A stretch of 64,000 nucleotides of DNA, taken from the IMG/VR virus record IMGVR_UViG_2541047850_000005, positions 3,554 through 67,553 of that record; one strand, 5' to 3'. Below the pieces are notes generated by a model, which was not told the origin of the DNA, ran no database searches, and worked only from the letters and a program-made list of their open reading frames with translations. Both the position numbers and the translations under genes were made by a program. The DNA comes from a virus (lineage: Duplodnaviria; Heunggongvirae; Uroviricota; Caudoviricetes). Each line of letters begins with the position of its first letter. Within the stretch, counting starts at the first letter, position 1. Of the stretch, positions 3,140 through 61,727 are shown in pieces.

Positions 3140-3451
3140 TCAGGCTATTGCCATCACTGATGCTCTCTGAATCTCTTGCTGGGCCACGCGGTTAACTTCC
3201 ATCAAAGCCAGTTCGAGCTGATGTTCCGGCCACATTCTTTGAAATGCCATCCAGCCTTTTCCACGCTGGCGACGAACATTCATTACATAACGAGTAAAGG
3301 TGTTTTTATCGAAAGACACCGCTGTTTCACGGAACAGACGAATAGAGGTTCCATTGGCAACGATGTCCAGCAAAGTTAATTGAGCAACCAGCGCAGGCTT
3401 CTCTTTTCTCTTCTGGTCTTTGTCCAGACCAAGAACCAATGATTTTTTCAT
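3140..3451 (-). CDS. hypothetical protein (103 aa)
   Basis: ATG 3451 has GGAG 7 nt upstream. The longer track start (3481) would lie inside motif-1 palindrome 3462-3477. Confidence 0.6.
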   Translation of the reverse strand: MKKSLVLGLDKDQKRKEKPALVAQLTLLDIVANGTSIRLFRETAVSFDKNTFTRYVMNVRRQRGKGWMAFQRMWPEHQLELALMEVNRVAQQEIQRASVMAIA

Positions 3452-3604
3452 CACAACTCCGTAAACAACTTGTTTTCTCAATGTCGTAAATAATACCAGT
3501 AAGAAAACGGCTACAAAGCATATTGATCAGGTGCATGAGCGATATGCAGGTTCTTCCCTGCGGCTATAGAGAAATTAAGCCAGCAATGCTGGCTTTGGTT
3601 GGGA

Positions 3605-3934
3605 TTACGCGAATACCTCAAGAAACTCCTGAACGTCCCAATGCTGGACGAGGTGAAGATAGACCTTAGAAATCACGTCATTTTCACTATCGCATGTGAA
3701 GTAGTACTTCTGGCTGCGGTTGTATGTGTCCACACAAAATTCGCTCATATCCATAAAGTCAGCATCTTCACCCATGTCGCAAATCATCAAAGCAGGTGCG
3801 TCATCACGAGTCATCAGCTCCAGCACCCATATTGAATTAATCAGAGTGGAAGACCAACCTTCCAGCTCATAAAACTGGTCAAACTCTTTTTGAGTCAATT
3901 TCTTAATTTGGTTGATGTCGATATTTGCAAACAT
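3605..3934 (-). CDS. hypothetical acidic protein (109 aa)
   Basis: ATG 3934 has AAGGA 8 nt upstream. Earlier in-frame ATGs fall in or after motif-1 palindrome 3946-3961. Confidence 0.6.
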   Translation of the reverse strand: MFANIDINQIKKLTQKEFDQFYELEGWSSTLINSIWVLELMTRDDAPALMICDMGEDADFMDMSEFCVDTYNRSQKYYFTCDSENDVISKVYLHLVQHWDVQEFLEVFA

Positions 3935-6322: not shown

Positions 6323-8356
6323 TTACTTAACCTGGTGACCAGGTTTAGCACCAGCATCCGGGCTTAACAGGAAGATATCTTTCCCACCAGGACCAGCAGC
6401 CATCACCATGCCTTCTGAGATACCGAAACGCATTTTACGCGGAGCCAGGTTAGCCACCATAATGGTGTGACGACCAATCAGTGCCTGTGGGTCTGGATAA
6501 GCAGAACGAATGCCGGAGAAGACATTACGCTTTTCCCCACCGAGATCCAGTGTCAGACGCAGCAGTTTGTCAGAGCCTTCAACAAACTCCGCGTTTTCAA
6601 TCAGCGCCACACGCAGGTCAACTTTGGCGAAGTCGTCAAAGGTGATGGTTTCCTGAATCGGGTCGTCAGCCAGTGGGCCAGTTACCGGTGCGGCTGTGGC
6701 TTTCACTTCTTCTTTGGATGCTTCCACCAGTGCTTCCACCTGTTTCATATCGATGCGGTTATACAGCGCCTTGAACGGATTCACTTTGTGGCCCAGCAGC
6801 GGTTGCTGGATACCATCCCAGGTCAGTTCTGTATTGAGGAATGCTTCTGCGCGCTCGGTCAGTTTCGGCAGTACCGGTTTCAGGTAAGTCATCAGCACGC
6901 GGAACAGGTTAATGCCCATAGAGCAAATCGCCTGCAGATCGGCATCGCGACCTTCCTGCTTCGCCACCACCCACGGAGCCTGTTCATCGACATAGCGGTT
7001 AGCCAGGTCAGCCAGTGCCATGATTTCACGGATAGCTTTACCAAATTCGCGGCTTTCCCATGCTTCGCCAATCACTTCAGCGGCATCAGTAAAGGTTTTG
7101 TACAGTTGCGGGTCAGCCAGTTCGCTTGCCAGCACGCCGTCAAAACGCTTGTTGATAAAGCCTGCATTACGGGAGGCCAGGTTAACCACTTTGTTCACGA
7201 TATCGGCATTCACTCGCTGAACGAAATCTTCCAGGTTGAGATCGATATCATCAATGCGCGAAGAGAGTTTCGCAGTGTAGTAGTAACGCAGGCTGTCGGC
7301 GTCAAAATGATTCAGCCAGGTGCTGGCTTTAATGAACGTGCCGCGAGACTTGGACATCTTCGCACCGTTCACCGTCACATAGCCATGAACAAACAGGTTG
7401 GTCGGCTTGCGGAAGTTGCTGCCTTCCAGCATGGCAGGCCAGAACAGGCTGTGGAAGTAAACGATATCTTTACCGATGAAGTGGTACAGCTCGGCGGTGG
7501 AGTCTTTCTTCCAGTATTCATCGAAGCTGGAGGTGTCGCCGCGTTTGTCGCACAGATTCTTGAAGGAACCCATGTAGCCAATCGGCGCGTCCAGCCAGAC
7601 GTAGAAATATTTGCCCGGCGCGTTCGGAATTTCAAAACCGAAATAAGGGGCGTCGCGGGAGATATCCCACTGTTGCAGGCCAGATTCAAACCACTCCTGC
7701 ATTTTATTTGCCACCTGCTCCTGCAACGCACCGCTGCGGGTCCATGCCTGCAGCATTTCGCTGAAAGAAGGCAGATCAAAGAAGAAGTGTTCGGAATCAC
7801 GCATTACCGGCGTAGCACCAGAAACTACCGATTTCGGCTCGATCAGTTCAGTCGGGCTGTAAGTCGCGCCGCAGACTTCACAGTTATCGCCGTATTGATC
7901 TGGCGCTTTACATTTAGGGCAGGTGCCTTTTACAAAACGGTCCGGCAGGAACATGCCTTTTTCCGGGTCGTATAACTGAGAGATGGTGCGGTTTTTAATA
8001 AAACCGTTCTCTTTCAGGCGAGTATAAATAAGCTCGGACAACTGACGGTTCTCTTCGCTGTGCGTCGAGTGATAGTTGTCATAGCTGATGTTAAAGCCTG
8101 CAAAATCAGTCTGGTGTTCCTGACTCATTTCGCCAATCATCTGTTCCGGTGTGATACCAAGCTGCTGTGCTTTCAGCATGATCGGTGTGCCGTGGGCATC
8201 GTCGGCACAGATGAAATTAACCTCGTGGCCGCGCATTCGCTGGTAACGAACCCAGACATCAGCCTGGATGTGCTCCAGCATATGGCCGAGGTGGATTGAG
8301 CCGTTAGCGTACGGCAGCGCGCACGTCACCAGAATTTTCTTCGCGACTTGGGTCAT
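6323..8356 (-). CDS. metG: methionyl-tRNA synthetase
   Basis: 677 aa from [30 protein letters not shown] motif present, plus a C-terminal tRNA-binding domain. Near-identical to E. coli MetG as recalled. Confidence 0.97.
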
Positions 8357-8513
8357 AGTAGGCATTACTTCTTTGTAGTGAAAAGGGGCTTGATAGTAAC
8401 AAAATGGCCTTATGTCTGCCATGTGATAACAGCATTTCTCATAAATGATTAAATGCCGTAGCTGGAGTACACTACAAGGCGACAATTGCGCAAATTAAAA
8501 TAAAGGAGACGGG

Positions 8514-9614
8514 ATGAGCGAGTCCAAATCGCCGGATGCCCTGAGAGCAATGGTAGCCGGTACGCTGGCTAATTTTCAGCACCCAACCCTGAAACACAAC
8601 CTGACTACGCTTAAAGCGTTACACCATGTTGCGTTGATGGATGACACACTGCATGTCGAACTAATCATGCCTTTCGTGTGGAATAAGCCTTTTGAAGACC
8701 TGAAAGAGCAATGTAGTGGTGATCTGCTCCGTATCACTGGCGCAAAGGCTATCGACTGGAAGCTGTCGTACAACATTGCCACGCTTAAGCGCGTCAAAAA
8801 CCAACCAGGCATTAATGGCGTTAAGAACATTATCGCCGTCAGCTCAGGCAAGGGCGGCGTTGGTAAATCCTCCACGGCGGTAAACCTGGCACTGGCGTTG
8901 GCTGCTGAAGGTGCGAAAGTTGGTATTTTGGATGCCGATATCTACGGGCCATCAATTCCAACCATGCTTGGCGCGGAAAACCAACGTCCAACCTCACCGG
9001 ACGGTACTCACATGGCACCGATTATGTCTCATGGACTGGCAACCAATTCAATTGGTTATCTGGTAACTGACGACAATGCGATGGTGTGGCGTGGTCCGAT
9101 GGCGAGCAAGGCGTTAATGCAGATGTTGCAGGAAACTCTATGGCCTGATCTGGACTATCTCGTTCTCGATATGCCGCCGGGTACTGGTGATATTCAGCTG
9201 ACGCTGGCGCAGAACATTCCTGTAACTGGTGCTGTTGTGGTAACTACGCCGCAAGATATCGCGCTGATCGATGCGAAGAAAGGCATTGTGATGTTCGAAA
9301 AAGTCGAAGTGCCGGTACTGGGTATCGTCGAAAACATGAGTGTGCATATTTGCAGTAACTGCGGTCATCACGAGCCAATTTTTGGCACCGGTGGCGCACA
9401 GAAACTGGCCGAGAAATACAACACGCAGTTGTTAGGCCAAATGCCACTTCATATCTCTCTTCGTGAAGATCTGGATAACGGAACACCAACCGTTATTAGT
9501 CGTCCAGATAGCGAATTTACGGCTATTTATCGTGACCTTGCAGATCGCGTTGCTGCCCAAATGTATTGGCAAGGTGAAGTAATACCTGGCGAAATCGCAT
9601 TCCGCGCAGTGTGA
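8514..9614 (+). CDS. apbC: Fe-S cluster carrier ATPase ApbC/Mrp
   Basis: P-loop SSGKGGVGKSS and CSNCGHH motif. Divergent from metG as in E. coli. SD AAGGAG. Confidence 0.95.
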   Translation: MSESKSPDALRAMVAGTLANFQHPTLKHNLTTLKALHHVALMDDTLHVELIMPFVWNKPFEDLKEQCSGDLLRITGAKAIDWKLSYNIATLKRVKNQPGINGVKNIIAVSSGKGGVGKSSTAVNLALALAAEGAKVGILDADIYGPSIPTMLGAENQRPTSPDGTHMAPIMSHGLATNSIGYLVTDDNAMVWRGPMASKALMQMLQETLWPDLDYLVLDMPPGTGDIQLTLAQNIPVTGAVVVTTPQDIALIDAKKGIVMFEKVEVPVLGIVENMSVHICSNCGHHEPIFGTGGAQKLAEKYNTQLLGQMPLHISLREDLDNGTPTVISRPDSEFTAIYRDLADRVAAQMYWQGEVIPGEIAFRAV

Positions 9615-9615
9615 T

Positions 9616-9640
9616 AAAAAGGTGGTGCAATGCACCACCT
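9616..9640. terminator. bidirectional terminator shared by apbC and the humD-like gene
   Basis: AAAAA-GGTGGTGCAATGCACCACC hairpin between two convergent stop codons. Confidence 0.7.
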
Positions 9641-9651
9641 AAACAGTTCTC

Positions 9652-10041
9652 CTACATCACAGGACAATCATCAAACTCGCCACTTCTTGCGTCGTTGATA
9701 ATGTGAGTGATCACACCAAACACGGCATTGCTGCCCGTGCATCCATCATCATCCTTTGGCAATGCTTCCTTCTTACCAGTTCTTAAATCCTCCAGATGCT
9801 GACGTGGATACTTCCGGTATCTTTTTACGCGATATTCCCCATCCAGAGCACATACAAGAAGAGATCCATCAACAGGAGTGAGTGAGGAATCGACCACCAG
9901 CAATGCACCCTGCAATATTCCCTCACGATGATGGCTATCAGCTGCCCTCAAGAAGTAGGTCGCTGAAGGATGTCTAATTATCTGCTGATCAAGAGAAATA
10001 CGGCTCTCAGCATAATCCGCCGCAGGAGAGGGGTACCCCAT
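9652..10041 (-). CDS. humD: UmuD'-like protein encoded in pre-processed form (P1 HumD-like)
   Basis: MGYPSPAADYAE.. aligns with UmuD from the Cys24/Gly25 cleavage site onward. The ADSH Ser and VKRYRK Lys are retained. Confidence 0.85.
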   Translation of the reverse strand: MGYPSPAADYAESRISLDQQIIRHPSATYFLRAADSHHREGILQGALLVVDSSLTPVDGSLLVCALDGEYRVKRYRKYPRQHLEDLRTGKKEALPKDDDGCTGSNAVFGVITHIINDARSGEFDDCPVM

Positions 10042-10059
10042 AGCGTTTTACCTCAAAAA

Positions 10060-10079
10060 TACTGTTTATCTGTACAGTA
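10060..10079. promoter_or_regulatory. LexA (SOS) box upstream of the humD-like gene
   Basis: TACTGTTTATCTGTACAGTA equals CTGT-N8-ACAG, 19 bp upstream of the ATG. Confidence 0.8.
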
Positions 10080-10198
10080 TACATTAAAGAAGCACCTTTG
10101 GTGCATTAGAGAAATGCAAAACGATAATAGAGGCTAAATCGAGGTAGAAAACACATTGTTTAAGGCCACTAATTGTGGCCTTAATGGAGAGGGGATGC

Positions 10199-10723
10199 TT
10201 ATTGGCTATGGCTAAAAATCAAATTAGACACTTCATGTGGTTGTAGCTCGTCAAGATCCGGTGCCACAAAACCTTTTCCGAAAGACTTCACAAGTGATTC
10301 ACCAGCCGCATCATTGTCACCTATTACACGAAAGTCATACGGCAGCATTGCCAGTTGACGACGTAATCCTGCTGAGAAAGTCGAACCTAACAGCGCCCAC
10401 GAATTTCCGCCCGCGTTGTGCACTGCTGCACTTTTAAAAATCGACTCAGTTATCCATATCGGTCCATCTTTTAAAGGAAGATAGGTTCCCCATAGTAGCT
10501 GTCTGCCGTGCGCTCGTGTGAAATACCGGGCCATCTTCGGATTGCTGTGCTGCTTAGGAGCGCCTGGTCTGTATGTCTGATACCCGGCCAACATCCCATC
10601 AAACCTGTATAGAGGGAATGTAACAACTCCTTCGCTTTCATCGATCCACTGTCTATATGGGTGTATATCATGGCGGTAGTTACGAGTCAGCAAATGAGCT
10701 TCCAGCTTTCCAAATTTGGTCAT
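10199..10723 (-). CDS. Toprim-domain protein (primase-core-like)
   Basis: IWITESIFKSAAV (Toprim Glu) and VIGDNDAAG (DxD). ATG 10723 lies 13 nt after the upstream stop and has a GAGG SD. Confidence 0.55.
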   Translation of the reverse strand: MTKFGKLEAHLLTRNYRHDIHPYRQWIDESEGVVTFPLYRFDGMLAGYQTYRPGAPKQHSNPKMARYFTRAHGRQLLWGTYLPLKDGPIWITESIFKSAAVHNAGGNSWALLGSTFSAGLRRQLAMLPYDFRVIGDNDAAGESLVKSFGKGFVAPDLDELQPHEVSNLIFSHSQ

Positions 10724-48693: not shown

Positions 48694-51600
48694 TCACGAC
48701 TTAATAGTTTCTGCTACGTCGGCTAATATCGCTTCTAGTCGTTCTCCCTCTTCAGGTCTGAAGTAAAGAATGTTGGGGTTAAACCCGTAAAAGACAGTAA
48801 CGTCAAGGTCTGGAAGATACTCCTTCCTGCCGACCAAATCGGATGGCTTGTTTTTGTTGTTAAACAATGCCGTTGCCCGGCTGCCACACGTCAGCACATA
48901 GGTCGGACGCACCAGATTGATCTCTTCACGTATAAAGTCGGTGAACTGGCCGATCTCGTCTTTGGTGTAGTCTTTTTCTTTGTCTTTAACCTTCTTGCAA
49001 ACGCCTGTGACATAGAGATCGCCCATGCGTAAATCTCCAGCCGTCAATAGCTTGGCCTTAAAGTCGTCGTATCCGTTCTCCATAAAGTAACCTGTTCGAG
49101 CATCATTGCCGTTCGCATTGTCCAGAATGATCATGATTTTCGGCTTAATACCAATGCTGGGGCGGATTAGTTCATCACCTAAGCCCATTTCAGCCGCCAT
49201 CCGTGTCATGAGCACGTTAATCTCAGCCGAACGTTTGGGGTTCATCTCAAACGGACGTGAGGCTTTAACTGCGTCTATGACAAGATTTCCCATCAATTCC
49301 GCTTGGTCGCGGAGACGTTCTGGATCAGTTGCTGGCAGACTACCTGGCTCGATGGATGCAAACGCACCTACTTTTCGCAGTGATTCGCGCACTCGACTAT
49401 TACAGGCACGTTTCTCGACAGCTTCTTCGAATTGCGCCAGTGACTCGAATTTGCCGCCAACTTTTTCTCGCGCTCTCATGATGGCTTGGCAGCCATTCTC
49501 AGAACACCCCTTCACAGCAGAGAAGGGTGCATACAGAACCTGGCTGCCATCTTCAAGCGTGCGGATCTCGATTCGGTTAGATGACACGTTAACGTCTGGT
49601 GGCAATACGCGAATACCATAGGTCAGCGCATCTTTAACCAGCCCTTGGTGTTTATCTTCGCCAAGAATAGTGAGAGCAGCAGCGAAAAACTCTGCGGGAT
49701 AATGAGTTTTCAACCACATAGATTGATAACTGATTAAGGAGTAAGCAACAGAGTGTGATTTGTTGAACTGGTAGGCACCATTTTTTTCGAATGCGGTCCA
49801 GATCTCCTTCGCTTTCATCTCTGATAGGCCAGGATGTGACGCTGTAACGCGTACTGCGTTTATAGGTAGTTTTGCGCCGTGCTCAAGTGCCTCTTCGACA
49901 GTTTTCAGAGTTCCGTCTTCGCATTTAAAATGTTCCGCACGGTGAATGCGCTGTGTAGTGCCATCTTCCAGCTCAACGTCTATCCAGCCAGCTTGAGCCT
50001 GAACGATGAACTTCTCGCCCATGCTCTTCATTTTTTCCATGTTCTTCTTACCGATTGCGGAACGCACACCGTCAGCTTCAGCCATTGTGAAGCCGGCAAG
50101 CAATCGAGTCGCGTTCATCGTCTGTTCCTGATAGAGAATCACGCCATTTGTTTCCGCGGTAAGTTCATCAAGAACGGGGTGTAATGATTCCGGCGTCATA
50201 AAGCCTTTGGCGACAGAAACATAGTCATCCAACATGCCTGATTGAATTGGCCCCGGCCGGAAGAGCGCAGTTGTAGCGACGACCGTTTTAAAGCTCATTG
50301 GCTCAATTCCACCACCTAAATCTTTAAGCAGCTTGCGCATTGGGCCTGATTCAAGCTGGAAAACACCTTGAGTGTACCCAGCAGCAAAACCATCCAGTAC
50401 CTTGCGATCTTCAAGAGAAATGGCATCAAGATTGATATCCTCACCTGTGTTCTCTTTAATGTAGCGTTTTGCACTATCGAGCAAATCGAGAGTCGCCAGG
50501 CCAAGTACATCCAGCTTAATTAGGCCCATAGCCTCGCAGTAACGCTTGTCAAATGCGATACAACGCGCGTCACCACGGCGTTCAACCGGTGTACGTTCTG
50601 TCAAGGGAACACCTGCTACGATCATCCCTGCCGCATGTCTGCCAAAGCCACGCATAATGCTTTGTAACTTACAGGCTGCATTGAATGCATCAGGATATTT
50701 TGTCGCGTATTTGTCGAGACTTGCTAGTTGTTCGCGCAGCTCTTCCAATGGAAGGCTATCATCCTCGACGTTCTTCAGTTCTTTTGATACCGCCATATCC
50801 GCAGCATCGACACCGTAAATACGCGCAGTGTCACGCAGCGCAGAAGCAGCGCCCAGATAGGTGAAGTTCGGAATACCGGCAACGTAATCTTCGCCATAGC
50901 GTTCATTCAGATACTCGATCACCTCATGACGACGTGCCTGACTGAAGTCTAAATCAGCATCCGGCAAGTCGAGACGCTCAGGGTTGATGAAACGCTCAAA
51001 CAGAAGACCGTGACGGATTGGGTCGACGTTGGTTATGCCTATGCACCACGCCACCAGAGAACCGGCAGAGGAACCACGACCAGGCCCAACGGGAATGCCA
51101 GTTTCACGACTATGATTCATCAGATCGCGCACCATCAGGAAGTAACCACAGAATCCCAGGCGAGTCAGCGTGTCCATTTCGTACTTTAGCCGCTCAACAT
51201 AAACCCTGTTCTCAGAAGCAGGTGGTGTGTATCCAAACTCTTTTGTGGTAAGACGTTTACGCAGCCCTGCAACAGCCAGTTTCATCAGCGTTGCAGGTTC
51301 GTCGTCTGCCATCTTGGGCAGTGCTGGTGGCAATTCATGCCAGCGCCATGTGCAGGCATCGATAATGGTATCCTGCGTTGTTGAGGCCATTGCAGCTGTT
51401 ACCGGCACATCCATGCGAACGGAGAAGGCTTTAAGCGACTCAAGGAGATGGCGGCGACCATTGACGGCGTTATCTCGCTGGTGGGGGATACGCAGACGAT
51501 GCGGCTGGTCGATTTTTATGTTGTTCGTAACCATGTGCGCAATGTCTTTAATGTCTGCATCGTCGATCGATTCGTAATAAGCGGGATAGAACGCTACTGG

Positions 51601-52212
51601 CTCTATTTTCAGTGCGCTGGCTACTTTCATCGCTCGGACGTTAATCTGGTCGTAGAATGGGGTAGGGTGCGGATAAACCACGCTATAGAAGTTGTCTTTT
51701 CCACCCGCTGTAATCAGTGTGCTTATGATTTTTGCAAAATCGTTGCGTTGGAACACGCTACCGATGTCGGAAGTGAGCAGGATGATGTTGCCTTTGGCAT
51801 ATGTAGAAACCAACTGTTCGAGCGAGAGACGCGGTACAAAGTAGAACTGTTCTCGTGTGTTGGCCACCGTCATTAGTTCGCAGATGTCGCGATATCCTTG
51901 CTCATTTTTAATTAGAGCGGTAAACGAGTAGTTACGTCCCCGCTCTAATGATTCCATACATCTCATAGATTCTTTAGCAAGTTTAGCACGGTGCTCGTAT
52001 GTGGGATCATCAACAATGTTTAGTTTCACACCACAAATAACCGCCATGTCGTCACCAGCGGCACGTTGTAGTGGAATAACGCTCGCAATATTCATGCTAT
52101 CTGCTGAAATTACAGCGGTGTAGCCAGCTTCTCTGGCAATCTTCACCGCGTTTTCTGCTTTTAAAGCCGACTCCCCAAGTGAGAAGTCAGTTCGAACCAT
52201 CAGTGCCTTCAT
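48694..52212 (-). CDS. dnaE: DNA polymerase III alpha-type (C-family) polymerase
   Basis: 1172 aa. GRGSSAGSLVAWCIGIT and PDADLDF palm motifs. The N-terminal PHP region lacks the usual His residues (MVRTDFSLGESAL). Confidence 0.93.
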   Translation of the reverse strand: MKALMVRTDFSLGESALKAENAVKIAREAGYTAVISADSMNIASVIPLQRAAGDDMAVICGVKLNIVDDPTYEHRAKLAKESMRCMESLERGRNYSFTALIKNEQGYRDICELMTVANTREQFYFVPRLSLEQLVSTYAKGNIILLTSDIGSVFQRNDFAKIISTLITAGGKDNFYSVVYPHPTPFYDQINVRAMKVASALKIEPVAFYPAYYESIDDADIKDIAHMVTNNIKIDQPHRLRIPHQRDNAVNGRRHLLESLKAFSVRMDVPVTAAMASTTQDTIIDACTWRWHELPPALPKMADDEPATLMKLAVAGLRKRLTTKEFGYTPPASENRVYVERLKYEMDTLTRLGFCGYFLMVRDLMNHSRETGIPVGPGRGSSAGSLVAWCIGITNVDPIRHGLLFERFINPERLDLPDADLDFSQARRHEVIEYLNERYGEDYVAGIPNFTYLGAASALRDTARIYGVDAADMAVSKELKNVEDDSLPLEELREQLASLDKYATKYPDAFNAACKLQSIMRGFGRHAAGMIVAGVPLTERTPVERRGDARCIAFDKRYCEAMGLIKLDVLGLATLDLLDSAKRYIKENTGEDINLDAISLEDRKVLDGFAAGYTQGVFQLESGPMRKLLKDLGGGIEPMSFKTVVATTALFRPGPIQSGMLDDYVSVAKGFMTPESLHPVLDELTAETNGVILYQEQTMNATRLLAGFTMAEADGVRSAIGKKNMEKMKSMGEKFIVQAQAGWIDVELEDGTTQRIHRAEHFKCEDGTLKTVEEALEHGAKLPINAVRVTASHPGLSEMKAKEIWTAFEKNGAYQFNKSHSVAYSLISYQSMWLKTHYPAEFFAAALTILGEDKHQGLVKDALTYGIRVLPPDVNVSSNRIEIRTLEDGSQVLYAPFSAVKGCSENGCQAIMRAREKVGGKFESLAQFEEAVEKRACNSRVRESLRKVGAFASIEPGSLPATDPERLRDQAELMGNLVIDAVKASRPFEMNPKRSAEINVLMTRMAAEMGLGDELIRPSIGIKPKIMIILDNANGNDARTGYFMENGYDDFKAKLLTAGDLRMGDLYVTGVCKKVKDKEKDYTKDEIGQFTDFIREEINLVRPTYVLTCGSRATALFNNKNKPSDLVGRKEYLPDLDVTVFYGFNPNILYFRPEEGERLEAILADVAETIKS

Positions 52213-56390: not shown

Positions 56391-56777
56391 ATGTCTGACA
56401 AAAACATTGAATTTATAGAAAGTCGCTATGCTGCTTTTATCGCAGGGCTGATTGAATCCTCACCTATGAGTCAGGCCCAAATAGCCAGACTTATTGGTTA
56501 TAAAAATGCCAACAACCTTTCTTTAATTAAAAGTGGTAAAATTCCTTTGCCTATCGATAAGGTTCGTCCGCTGGCGTTGGCGCTGGGTATTGAGCCAAGT
56601 CGTCTTATGATGATGGTGCTGGAAGAACGCCAACCTGAACTCGCAGCATTTTTATACAAAGAAGGCACCGCTCCTCTTAACGAGGACGAAAAACAGGTTC
56701 TTGCTGCATATAACGAGCGATTCGGTAAAGAGAAAGGCGCATCACAAAAGGTTGTTGAGGCCATAAAGTCTCTATGA
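56391..56777 (+). CDS. XRE-family helix-turn-helix regulator (repressor candidate)
   Basis: SQAQIARLIGYKNANNLSLIKSGK HTH. The only obvious HTH protein in the block. Confidence 0.8.
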   Translation: MSDKNIEFIESRYAAFIAGLIESSPMSQAQIARLIGYKNANNLSLIKSGKIPLPIDKVRPLALALGIEPSRLMMMVLEERQPELAAFLYKEGTAPLNEDEKQVLAAYNERFGKEKGASQKVVEAIKSL

Positions 56778-57875
56778 AAAATTTAGACGAATAAGCTCTG
56801 TTGATAGACGATCTCCCTTGAATTTGTGGTCAATTTCGTCTAAATCCGGTTGCTCTACGATTGATGCGATGTACGTTGAGAAACTTTCTAAGGCGTCTCG
56901 CATCTCGTCCATATAATCGTGCCGGTCGTAGACCCGATCTATCCCCTCAAGACTGTGGTTCATGATTTTGCGTGATACCTCCTGGCTTATGCCTAATGCT
57001 GGGAAGTAACTACGCGCAGTACGACGCAAATCTCGGGGTGTAAATGGCGCAAGCTCCATCAGTTCTGGTCGTTCCAGAATACGACGTAATGCCTGGGCTA
57101 TTGCCACTTTAGACATAGGAAGGTCTTTCCCGATTTTTTTATTCGAAGGCACGAGCCACTGGCTGTCTTTACCGTATTCGAACAACTCTTCAATGCATGT
57201 GCGCATTAATGTGCTTAAAGGCAGCGAATGCTCACGTGCTGACTTGTTTCTCTTGCCTTGATTCCAAACTCCACGCTTAAGATTGAACTCACTTTTTTTA
57301 GCCCTCAGTACTTCGTCAGGTCGTCTTGCTGATACAAGACACAGCCTGGCCGCCCATTTTGTACCAGCGCACACATTGAAGTAGTCCCATATATTCCAGA
57401 ACACCCATACCTCTGCGTCGGTCAGCTTCCGCTCGCGAGGTGTGGGCTTTGCGCCACCGGCAACTTTGTTTAGTGACATATCGTTTAACGGTGACACGTC
57501 TATCATCCCCTGGAAGGCGCACCAGCTAAGGAACTGCTTCATCAGAGAGAAAACGCGGCGGCCCATAACAATTTTGCCATCCAGTATTAGTGGGTTGACC
57601 AGTTGGTTCACCATGAACCTATTAATGTCACTTACTTTTACATCGGCAATGTGCGGCAAAACATGTATCAAAATACAATGAACAGCGATCTCTGGCCGAC
57701 GTCTGGTTATCAGCAGAGATAAGCGAGTGAATAACATGAATGCGTCCGAGAATTTCATATCATTGCTAACCTGCGAGATCATAACGGCCTGCATTTGAGA
57801 TGCTCTTTCGAGATACTCAATCGCCTCTTTTGAGGTGTTCTCAGCAGCGCGTGCTCTGTCAAAGCTATTTTTCAT
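56772..57875 (-). CDS. int: tyrosine recombinase/integrase
   Basis: ..RDLRRTARS.. and ..MNHSLEGIDRVYDRHDY (R, H-x-x-R-like, Y). Confidence 0.88.
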   Translation of the reverse strand: MKNSFDRARAAENTSKEAIEYLERASQMQAVMISQVSNDMKFSDAFMLFTRLSLLITRRRPEIAVHCILIHVLPHIADVKVSDINRFMVNQLVNPLILDGKIVMGRRVFSLMKQFLSWCAFQGMIDVSPLNDMSLNKVAGGAKPTPRERKLTDAEVWVFWNIWDYFNVCAGTKWAARLCLVSARRPDEVLRAKKSEFNLKRGVWNQGKRNKSAREHSLPLSTLMRTCIEELFEYGKDSQWLVPSNKKIGKDLPMSKVAIAQALRRILERPELMELAPFTPRDLRRTARSYFPALGISQEVSRKIMNHSLEGIDRVYDRHDYMDEMRDALESFSTYIASIVEQPDLDEIDHKFKGDRLSTELIRLNFS

Positions 57876-57901: not shown

Positions 57902-57921
57902 TACTGTATAAGTAAACAGTA
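57902..57921. promoter_or_regulatory. LexA (SOS) box overlapping the -10 of the recombinase gene
   Basis: TACTGTATAAGTAAACAGTA equals CTGT-N8-ACAG. TAATAT lies adjacent on the coding strand. Confidence 0.75.
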
Positions 57922-58407: not shown

Positions 58408-59190
58408 TTATTTTGAGATATATAAAGTTTTGTGTGGCTGTTTATTTTTCAGGTAAAATTGTTTAGGTGTCATATTGAAGTACCTCTTAAACACTGAGAT
58501 AAAGTATGCTTCACTTGTATATCCTAAACACTTGGCGACAAAACCAACTTTCCCAGTGTTGTGTTCTAATAGTTGTAACGCGTTTTTCATTTTAGTATCT
58601 AAAGTTAACTGTGTAAAAGTATAATTTTCCTCTTTTAGTCTTCTCCTCAATGAGGATTCTGAAGTATAAAGAGCGGAAGCCATTTCGCCTATACGCCATT
58701 GTTGAGTTAAGTTTTTTTCTAAGATGGATGATACTTTTTCTGAAATCAAAATTACTGGCATTGACTGCTTAAAGAAGTTTGTAAGTTCATAGGTGTCTAT
58801 GCGGCTGAATAAAAATAACAGTATGCTAACGCGTCTAAAACCTGATTTTTCATTTTTAAGTTGTCTAAAGGCTAACTCTTCTTCCGTGTTCAGACTTGGT
58901 CCGATAATTAATGGTGGTTTGTTGTTGGTCGGGTGTATATTAACGCAGGAGAGAAATTTCACAATAATTCCAATATCCTCATCTTGAATAGTATAAATTT
59001 CGTCAGCAGAAACACGTCCGCTCAAACCAACAATTTTACTCTTTTTGCTAATAATGAAAAATGTATTTTTTAAAAGTTCTATCTCTTGATGCTCATTCAA
59101 ATAAATTTTTATTGATTGATGTTTGACATAAACTAAGGTGTATTTATTAAATATCATGTTTTTAAATGGCAACATGGTATTTTCCATCAC
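58408..59190 (-). CDS. Rns/CfaD/AggR-like AraC-family regulator
   Basis: 260 aa, AT-rich. C-terminal double HTH (..SESSLRRRLKEEN.., ..GYTSEAYFISVFKRYFNMTPKQF). N-terminus resembles Rns. Confidence 0.85.
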   Translation of the reverse strand: MMENTMLPFKNMIFNKYTLVYVKHQSIKIYLNEHQEIELLKNTFFIISKKSKIVGLSGRVSADEIYTIQDEDIGIIVKFLSCVNIHPTNNKPPLIIGPSLNTEEELAFRQLKNEKSGFRRVSILLFLFSRIDTYELTNFFKQSMPVILISEKVSSILEKNLTQQWRIGEMASALYTSESSLRRRLKEENYTFTQLTLDTKMKNALQLLEHNTGKVGFVAKCLGYTSEAYFISVFKRYFNMTPKQFYLKNKQPHKTLYISK

Positions 59191-59246
59191 GCAAATTTTT
59201 ATATTACCACACCATGATTATGATGTGGTACATACTATATGAATAT

Positions 59247-61727
59247 CTATTCGCAAACTAGGGAGAGTCGACTTATCTTGCTTTGGTTTGCTTTTAATTC
59301 AAATCGTGCGGAGCATTGGCTTTCTTTATTGTCTCCCCATTGGACATGCATTTCACCTCTGTCAGGCATACCACTCATCCATACCTGCCCATCGTTCGAA
59401 ACAATGCTTGTTACACTGATATCTCCGGCTTCTCCTTTTAACGAGGCAATAGCGCCAAAAGGAACGAAATTACCATTTTTTCTAATCAAAGTAATAAGTG
59501 CCTTATGTCCAGATACTACATTAAATTTGGCGTGAACTAACGCCCCACGGGAAGGTACTACCGTTAAATCAGATTTAATTATTTCAGTTTCTTCATTAAC
59601 CTTGTTTACGTCTAGAGATATTCCATTTTTTCTATAGGGTGAAAGGTAAGGAACCACAGCATATCCATTGAAATCTGTGCTAATACCAATACCTCTTTTT
59701 ACTTTGATGTCTTCTACGCCATTAGTGTCGATCAATGCATTAGCTCCGTCAAGAGATAACGGCTGAGACAATACAATCCCTTTTTTGTGTACAACTACTC
59801 CACCGCTAATGCCAAATTGTAATTGTTTTGAGTTATGTTGATGTGACACTGTTGATTGTATCTCTCCCTTGGAGGATTTATATCTCAGCGTTGCATTACC
59901 TGAACTGGAGTCACGACTACCGCTATGATAACCTTCCATGAAACTATAATATAATTGCTGGTCTATAAAATAACCACTCACACCTGCTTGTGTATTTGTG
60001 CTATTTCCTGAATTGTATACATTTGTTGTCAATGATGCATTACTATAGTTCGAAAAAGAACTAAAAGGTACTGAAACTGAAAGATAAACAGATTTATCTA
60101 TATCTTCATATTGTGGTTGTTTATTATAGTTTAATGACAAGGATGTAAATACCTTTTTTACAGGAAACGAATACGATAGCCGAAATTGGCGACTATCTTT
60201 AGCATTTCTATAAGTAGTCCAGTCTGAGGATAAGGTCAATTGGTTAGTATTGCCAATACTTTGTTGCAACTGAGTGGTAATTCTATTTATTTTATTAAAT
60301 TTGGAATTATTACCAATCTTCATCTGTTGATAATCATTAAAAGAATAGAAGTTCTGTGAATTATAAAGTTGCTCTGTCAAATTCAAATAAGTACCTGTAG
60401 ACTCAAATCCTTTCGCAAACATTAGTCGAGTTACAGAACCATTTTCACTTTTTCCATTATCTTTAGACACCGTATCAGAATCGGAGTAGCTCAGATCTAA
60501 TGAAAAAGCACCAATTGAAGATATGTACTTGCCAACTCCAAATGAAGCCGAACTATAGTTTTCGGCAACAATTATTCCACCAAAGATTGTAGTGTCCCAT
60601 CCTATACCCCATGCCGTTGAATATTGTAAGAATAAGGGCTTGTCTTTGAATGAGCTATTGATATCTCTATACTTACCAATTGCTGCGTGATAACGCATGC
60701 GACCTTTACGTTGGAGAATCGGTAATGTTGATGATGACTGTGTAAAGTGTCTAATCTCGCCATTACTTTCTCGTATTTCGATATCCATATCCCCTCCATA
60801 CAAAGGGAAGACATCTTGCAGCTCGAATGGACCTGCAGGAACGTCACCTTGCCAGATTATCATATTATTTTGCTTTACGATTATTTGGGATGGAGTGAAT
60901 GCGATTCCTCTAATTGTAGGGCTGTAAGTGCTCATCCAAGGGACGAGCATGCCATCATCGGACCCTATTGATATCCCTTCAAACGGAAAGCTTTCAAACA
61001 CTCCATCATCAGTTGATGATTGTCCAAATGTCAATTGTCCACCTTGTCCGAAGCTATAGTCATGACGCAAGTAGGTATTCAAATTTGTCCAGCCATATTT
61101 ACTTGAATTCCAGTACCCATTATGTCTCACTCTCCACCCCCCGATATTCAGTCCACTGTTAATTGCCAGTGATTGATTGTTCTTGGATGTTGAGTTTAGC
61201 CTTTGTCGTACATCAGAATAACGGTAATTTACAAGCAGTGAGGTTTCACCATCATCCCATGCTTGAGGTGGTATTTCTGACCACACAGGACGATAGATCC
61301 AACTTTGTGGAATGTTTACACTTAGAATCTGCTTGCTCTTATTGAATTTTACTTCAAACCCTTTGATCTGTTTTGAAAGTTCATTAGAAAGAATACTGCC
61401 ATTAGTTATATTTAAATTCGTTACATCAACCCCCCACTTTTTTAGACTCGTCTCTGTAAGTAGAGGAACAACCTTTCCTTTTCCTGATGATACGAATCGG
61501 ATCGTTTCCGTACCGAATGATTCATTGTTGACTTTAACATCAACAAGATATTCTCCAGGAAGAACTCCGTCCGCATGAGAGAAATAACTTAAATCAGGAG
61601 CATTAACCTTTTTATCATTACCAATATTAATAAATGCAGGATCAAATGTGTAGTTGGTTGCTAACTCTTCTGCATTGCTATAATGTATGACAAAAAAGAC
61701 AAATAAGGCTATTTGTTTTGTTTTCAT
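59247..61727 (-). CDS. fimbrial outer-membrane usher
   Basis: 826 aa, signal peptide, FimD/PapC-like length and beta-rich sequence, positioned between chaperone and regulator. Confidence 0.92.
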   Translation of the reverse strand: MKTKQIALFVFFVIHYSNAEELATNYTFDPAFINIGNDKKVNAPDLSYFSHADGVLPGEYLVDVKVNNESFGTETIRFVSSGKGKVVPLLTETSLKKWGVDVTNLNITNGSILSNELSKQIKGFEVKFNKSKQILSVNIPQSWIYRPVWSEIPPQAWDDGETSLLVNYRYSDVRQRLNSTSKNNQSLAINSGLNIGGWRVRHNGYWNSSKYGWTNLNTYLRHDYSFGQGGQLTFGQSSTDDGVFESFPFEGISIGSDDGMLVPWMSTYSPTIRGIAFTPSQIIVKQNNMIIWQGDVPAGPFELQDVFPLYGGDMDIEIRESNGEIRHFTQSSSTLPILQRKGRMRYHAAIGKYRDINSSFKDKPLFLQYSTAWGIGWDTTIFGGIIVAENYSSASFGVGKYISSIGAFSLDLSYSDSDTVSKDNGKSENGSVTRLMFAKGFESTGTYLNLTEQLYNSQNFYSFNDYQQMKIGNNSKFNKINRITTQLQQSIGNTNQLTLSSDWTTYRNAKDSRQFRLSYSFPVKKVFTSLSLNYNKQPQYEDIDKSVYLSVSVPFSSFSNYSNASLTTNVYNSGNSTNTQAGVSGYFIDQQLYYSFMEGYHSGSRDSSSGNATLRYKSSKGEIQSTVSHQHNSKQLQFGISGGVVVHKKGIVLSQPLSLDGANALIDTNGVEDIKVKRGIGISTDFNGYAVVPYLSPYRKNGISLDVNKVNEETEIIKSDLTVVPSRGALVHAKFNVVSGHKALITLIRKNGNFVPFGAIASLKGEAGDISVTSIVSNDGQVWMSGMPDRGEMHVQWGDNKESQCSARFELKANQSKISRLSLVCE

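Follow-up and report, generated by a model that had tools for sequence, protein, structure and literature searches.

What does a gene that encodes only the processed form of UmuD do on an element that carries no umuC? The gene in question, humD, occupies positions 9652-10041 (129 codons plus the stop) on the minus strand of a 64-kb window, by which we mean the whole 64,000-nt stretch of DNA that was analyzed, and it encodes a pre-truncated, UmuD'-like protein with an S24 domain. At a probability of roughly 85%, we favor the reading that this humD is an ortholog placed in a self-contained damage-inducible unit, made up of a LexA-type box, a ribosome-binding site, a pre-truncated UmuD' analog, and a terminator, and that its product would serve the UmuC of the host. 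HumD of phage P1 has reportedly been known since the 1999 work of McLenigan et al. The gene considered here is also already known, as an identical copy has been deposited in GenBank for phage PhiR41_1 (XSB42473.1, "error-prone repair protein"), and the HumD family already has a curated NCBI model.

The list of open reading frames and their translations gives a 129-residue product that begins MGYPSPAADY, as the first-pass annotation had stated. In an alignment with the solved chains 1umu, 1i4v, and 8gmt, Gly2 of HumD falls in the column of UmuD Gly25, Ser36 in that of Ser60, and Lys73 in that of Lys97, and the position of the Lys column is confirmed by the K97A chain 8gmt_B. Gly25 is the first residue of cleaved UmuD'. 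HumD starts at the equivalent of this residue, as Met-Gly-(Phe/Tyr)-Pro-Ser-Pro-Ala, and both the N-terminal arm of UmuD and its cleavage site are absent. The alignment thus upholds two earlier claims, that the protein starts at the residue created by UmuD cleavage and that the Ser and Lys positions are kept in the protein of the window. The DNA 5' of the ATG, read in frame, gives KVLL-stop-CILYR-stop-TVFLR-stop-NA before the initiator Met. The last of these stops, a TAA, stands three codons before the ATG and therefore makes an N-terminal extension impossible. An upstream in-frame start, which the first-pass annotation had named as a finding that would count against it, is excluded by this TAA, and the in-frame stop likewise rules out that the start of a full-length UmuD had been overlooked.

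HumD of the window and HumD of P1 are identical at 116 of 129 residues (90%) with zero gaps, and the NCBIfam equivalog NF051876 ("HumD family translesion DNA polymerase") scores 215.5 bits, where the cutoff is 120, with residues 1-129 matched to profile positions 1-129. The HumD-type, P1-like identity proposed at first pass is borne out by the ungapped identity and the full-length match above cutoff. Other members of the superfamily fit less well. The UmuD subfamily model NF007621 scores 84.9 bits, below its cutoff of 110, and UmuD proper, an autoproteolytic Pol V subunit, was rejected on this score and on the absence of the N-terminal 24 residues, which cannot be restored. A LexA model reaches 29.4 bits, below its cutoff of 110.95, and covers the C-terminal domain only. 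The Pfam search returned only Peptidase_S24 (PF00717), and a LexA or phage CI-type S24 repressor was set aside because the S24 domain stands alone, with no N-terminal DNA-binding domain. UmuD' in the PDB (1umu) matches HumD at E=1.9e-22, and identity to UmuD residues 25-139 is 41%. An AlphaFold model has a mean pLDDT of 44; the family alignment behind it holds 94 sequences, all at least 66% identical, and is hence shallow. We predict a UmuD'-like S24 β-fold for HumD from the match to the solved UmuD' chains.

At the DNA level, the window and P1 share 84% identity over a segment that begins 25 nt 5' of the LexA box and runs through the stop codon. Between the two humD genes dS is ~0.98 and dN is 0.049, giving a dN/dS of 0.05; humD is under strong purifying selection. 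The 65 nt upstream of the gene are ~88% identical to P1 in an alignment read by eye, far above the level at synonymous sites. Judged by these sequence comparisons, the gene is the ortholog of P1 humD.

A search of ~5.8 billion proteins returned 411 clusters at E<=1e-10, many of them already named "HumD family," from Escherichia, Salmonella, Citrobacter, Klebsiella, Enterobacter, and their relatives. Residues were counted in the best 120 representatives of the 411 clusters, or in 118 of them for some columns. The exact start M-G-F-P-S-P is present in 107 of these 120, and the truncation is therefore taken to be ancestral and selected; longer members look like mis-calls of an upstream start, with the Met retained. 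Tyr3 of the window protein is unusual, the residue being Phe in 117 of 118. The equivalent of Lys97 is Lys in 116 of 118, and the equivalent of Ser60 is Ser in 65 of the best 120, Thr in 54, and Ala in 1. In the window this Ser is residue 36 (codon at ~9934-9936), and the GDSM motif around it reads ADSH; the flanking motif is not kept across the family. Given a degenerate GDSM motif and the presence of Thr in 54 of the 120 representatives, retention of Ser36 is probably vestigial. The Ser appears not to be required by the family, consistent with a protein that no longer cleaves itself, and the self-cleavage site seems to have been released from selection, but the Lys position does not. Beyond the point at which UmuD ends, the family carries a near-invariant 10-residue C-terminal tail, x-G-E-F-D-D-C-P-V-M (residues 120-129 in the window; 9652-9681, minus strand).

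The absence of an umuC partner, also proposed at first pass, withstood a wider search. In the 64-kb window, tblastn with E. coli UmuC gave a best match of only E=1.7 over 33 residues; in PhiR41_1, the same query gave nothing at E<=1 across four loci covering the whole genome, and the PhiR41_1 record annotates no Y-family polymerase. E. coli K-12, the recorded host of PhiR41_1, has umuDC. Prophages of Citrobacter and Salmonella likewise carry humD, divergent from dinI, with no Y-family polymerase domain nearby, and the humD-type genes of P1, N15, and phiKO2 are also without umuC. A stand-alone humD is the norm of the family and is common in enterobacterial prophages and phage-plasmids. In many prophages and in phiKO2, humD and dinI form a divergent pair around a shared LexA box; no dinI homolog was found in the window. 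DinI inhibits UmuD cleavage, and a pre-cleaved HumD would therefore escape DinI.

Should host UmuC be taken as the main partner? HumD could instead act mainly beyond it, either on the replication proteins of the element or on RecA* and UmuD by heterodimerizing or competing, and so be a modulator of the SOS response rather than a Pol V subunit. The SSU5-like backbone does encode candidate targets, namely a DnaE-like Pol III α subunit of 1172 residues (48694-52212, minus strand), an ε-like exonuclease, and a RecA-like protein. In P1 and D6, humD sits beside hot, which encodes a homolog of the Pol III θ subunit, and many prophage copies are divergently paired with dinI, the product of which modulates RecA*. 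The near-invariant tail (GEFDDCPVM), absent from UmuD, and the replacement of the nucleophile Ser by Thr in 54 of the best 120 representatives point the same way. Against this, the 90%-identical HumD of P1, described as a shorter UmuD that is already activated, is reported to replace UmuD' in SOS mutagenesis (P1 annotation; PMC7092418); the humD note in the P1 record (NC_005856) reads "functionally complements E. coli UmuD'," and the equivalent box is annotated there as a LexA site. Moreover, such an activity would add to the main function and is compatible with service to host UmuC. We consider a main role beyond UmuC unlikely. The related proposal, that the HumD family might also engage the replication machinery of the element or RecA* after damage and so couple the SOS response to phage-plasmid replication, is somewhat less likely still.

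The window is 99.7-99.9% identical to Escherichia phage PhiR41_1 (107,998 bp) over ~63.4 kb, the match stopping beyond ~63422, and PhiR41_1 has been deposited as a complete phage genome with E. coli K-12 as its listed host. The DnaE-like polymerase of the window shows 94% identity to its counterpart in Salmonella phage SSU5, and the backbone, which also carries genes for ribonucleotide reductase, thymidylate synthase (ThyA), dihydrofolate reductase (DHFR), ParA, and lambda-like tail proteins, is SSU5-like, not P1. Embedded in this SSU5-type backbone, beside a captured metG-apbC pair, is a P1-type block consisting of a toprim gene, a remnant of lxr, and humD. SSU5 itself is absent from the DNA-level humD matches, and the literature on SSU5-like phage-plasmids that was checked contains no mention of humD, LexA, or metG. 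The presence of a P1-type segment in an SSU5-type backbone is evidence of what would be gene exchange between two phage-plasmid families.

The adjoining host-type genes are metG, for methionyl-tRNA synthetase (minus strand, annotated start near 8356), and apbC/mrp (8514-9614, plus strand), which together lie within 6323-9614. They form a second, apparently intact, divergent host pair with ~90% DNA identity to their chromosomal counterpart in E. coli. In a set of 5,426 complete E. coli genomes, plasmids hold similar copies at 222 places, and phages PhiR41_1, CMS-2020a, and Cyrano have them as well; a literature search turned up nothing on a phage-plasmid copy of metG/apbC.

Comparison with the P1-like plasmid pO111_2 shows how the block was altered upstream of humD. 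By blastn, window positions 10724-10105 correspond to 1977-2595 of the pO111_2 locus at 94.5% identity and hold the toprim gene and the last ten codons of lxr, and positions 10105-9653 correspond to 3255-3707 at 87% and hold the humD unit. Position 10105 is thus the junction of a 659-bp deletion that, relative to pO111_2, has taken out all other codons of lxr together with the DNA 5' of that gene. What is left of lxr is its last 10 codons and stop (ending IREMQNDNRG; 10105-10137, plus strand), at the end of an open reading frame at 9970-10137; this remnant, recognized in the DNA alignment, excepted, no full lxr was found in the window. Homology to P1 begins 25 nt upstream of the box, at the same point as the junction, and ends at the humD stop codon. 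Directly inside the junction is a small hairpin, GCACCAAAGGTGC then TTCTTTAATG (10092-10104, minus strand), that is conserved with P1. By a count based on coverage, 117 complete E. coli genomes out of 5,426 have a place covering at least 80% of a 601-bp junction-spanning query, and most of these places are on plasmids.

A Shine-Dalgarno sequence, GAGG (10051-10054, minus strand), stands 9 nt before the ATG of humD and is conserved in P1, pO111_2, and D6. Downstream, an intrinsic terminator (9615-9640, minus strand) with a 9-bp GC-rich stem, AGGTGGTGC/GCACCACCT, followed by TTTTT, sits between the humD stop codon and the convergent end of apbC; it is not shared with P1. The promoter is the weakest link in the explanation by SOS control. 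A consensus scan of 9500-10300 found no σ70 promoter. A weak candidate -10 hexamer read by eye, TATACT (10076-10081, minus strand), overlaps the left arm of the box, but it lacks a good -35 element and is not conserved, P1 having TGTACT at this place. Also considered as a -10 element was TATTTT at the right arm, which was rejected, as the promoter candidates read by eye are weak or would leave the transcript without a Shine-Dalgarno sequence. The lxr deletion left only 25 nt of the DNA that once preceded the box and took the place of the predicted PhumD of P1, so transcription may need either a weak promoter that overlaps the box, for which TATACT is the best candidate, or read-through from the toprim operon, with LexA as a roadblock.

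These gaps bear on whether humD could be a decaying remnant, that is, a umuD truncated by loss of its 5' end together with umuC and silent since the lxr deletion took its promoter. The empty promoter scan, the deletion ending 25 nt upstream of the box, and the degenerate protease motif (ADSH for GDSM) would all fit decay. A dN/dS of 0.05 would not, nor would an intact reading frame that has kept its box, its terminator, and a Shine-Dalgarno sequence. Of the best 120 representatives, 107 share the exact M-G start, which so belongs to the family. A place covering at least 80% of the junction-spanning query occurs in the 117 E. coli genomes counted above, and the element, deposited as a complete genome with a K-12 host, is a viable phage. 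A decaying gene is therefore very unlikely.

The remaining element of the unit is the LexA-type SOS box at 10060-10079. Its plus strand reads TACTGTTTATCTGTACAGTA, the string quoted at first pass, and its gene-strand reading, TACTGTACAGATAAACAGTA, lines up with the LexA site annotated in P1. The textbook LexA consensus of 20 nt is TACTGTATATATATACAGTA. The description of the box as perfect therefore needs to be divided: the arms, TACTGT-N8-ACAGTA, match the consensus at all 12 positions, but the whole 20-mer matches at 17 of 20, with three central positions different. Nor was the spacing of 19 bp to the ATG borne out; we count 18 nt in the window and 19 in P1, a difference due to a 1-nt deletion in the window. 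With at most one mismatch, TACTGT-N8-ACAGTA has two matches in the 64-kb window, where 0.10 would be expected, and none of 100 shuffles reached two. A position weight matrix (PWM) was built from 17 known LexA sites of E. coli, which themselves span 14.9-26.6 bits. It scores the two window boxes at 20.5 (humD) and 23.2 bits and the next-best 20-mer at 13.5. A third match, to CTGT-N8-ACAG at 3322-3337, was dismissed as chance, given its GC-rich center, its place inside a coding sequence, and a heterology index of ~19. A box is found in the same position 5' of the homologs in P1, pO111_2, D6, N15, and phiKO2, and the records of P1 and phiKO2 label it a LexA site. The box has been kept in N15 and phiKO2 even though the surrounding DNA can no longer be aligned with the window. 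By homology, then, the box is the putative LexA operator of humD. That it is instead a chance palindrome, or a relic operator of the deleted lxr alone, is very unlikely. In favor of this view, the P1 site is annotated as common to lxr and humD, and lxr is gone here. Against it, the arms are perfect, the box scores with the PWM as genuine sites do, its spacing from the ATG has been conserved (18 versus 19 nt), boxes also stand 5' of the N15, phiKO2, and D6 homologs, and humD is described as an SOS gene under LexA regulation (PMC9603915).

At 23.2 bits, the second box, TACTGTTTACTTATACAGTA (57902-57921), scores higher with the PWM than any other site in the window. Its position, 26 nt upstream of a gene for a tyrosine recombinase ("integrase") of 367 residues (56772-57875, minus strand), overlaps a TTGATC-17-TAATAT promoter, an arrangement that suggests a recombinase under SOS control on the phage-plasmid. 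Adjoining the integrase gene are genes for an AraC-family regulator (260 residues) and a complete PapC-type fimbrial usher (826 residues; 58408-61727, minus strand), a combination that looks like fimbrial cargo.

Put together, the parts of the humD unit suggest the following course of events. Homology and the literature would predict LexA binding and repression at the box, dimerization of HumD, partnership with UmuC, and a mutagenesis phenotype. In the plasmid-prophage state, host LexA would sit on the box and keep humD off. Upon DNA damage, RecA* would promote self-cleavage of LexA, and HumD would be made alongside the products of host umuDC. As a dimer, HumD would then join host UmuC in a translesion polymerase that resembles Pol V. 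As HumD starts at the equivalent of Gly25, the residue exposed by RecA-dependent cleavage, it would need no activation; the slow step from UmuD to UmuD' would be skipped, and error-prone lesion bypass could begin earlier in carriers of the phage-plasmid. McLenigan et al. (in 1999) are said to have dealt with HumD function, going by the title of their paper, works that cite it, and the annotation of P1.

Lysogens of the SSU5-like phage-plasmid probably acquire a cofactor of Pol V that is both damage-inducible and pre-activated. Such a cofactor could raise SOS mutagenesis and, with it, the rate of adaptation or of resistance mutation. As a discovery the locus carries little weight, and its value lies in a clean annotation. 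The local architecture shows exchange of cargo among phage-plasmid families.

UmuD homologs borne by mobile elements are described as accessory subunits of Y-family polymerases (PMC7092418), and HumD of the window can be placed among them by degrees of likeness. Closest is HumD of P1 (YP_006569.1; LexA site at 87545-87564 of NC_005856), which has the same length of 129 residues, the same start at the Gly25 equivalent, and the same C-terminal tail. As in the window, its LexA box stands at the same place with identical arms, and the phage is without umuC. The window protein differs by 13 substitutions, Phe3 to Tyr among them, and the window box differs from that of P1 at three central positions. 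The surroundings differ more: divergent lxr is present in P1 and deleted in the window, and phd-doc, downstream in P1, is replaced in the window by the terminator and the apbC-metG block.

Somewhat more distant are gp26 of N15 and Gp23 of phiKO2, both linear phage-plasmids, and the dinI-paired prophage genes, whose products are 66-72% identical and share the truncation and the tail. These too have a LexA box upstream and no umuC, as in the window, but they have Thr at the position of the nucleophile Ser, where the window protein has Ser. A divergent dinI partner accompanies the phiKO2 and chromosomal prophage copies, whereas N15 and the window are without such a pairing.

E. coli UmuD/UmuD' (1umu, 1i4v, and 8gmt) shares with HumD the S24 C-terminal domain, with Ser and Lys at the Ser60 and Lys97 positions, and a LexA box lies upstream of both genes. 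UmuD has N-terminal 24 residues and a Cys24-Gly25 cleavage site, both of which HumD lacks, and HumD would therefore need no RecA*-dependent activation. GDSM of UmuD reads ADSH in HumD, which also has a 10-residue C-terminal extension and no operon with umuC. MucA, RumA, ImpA, and SamA are UmuD homologs of plasmids and integrative and conjugative elements. They are made at full length and depend on cleavage, and each is encoded alongside its own polymerase gene (such as mucB or rumB) in one operon. Set against these, HumD of the window is pre-cleaved and stands alone.
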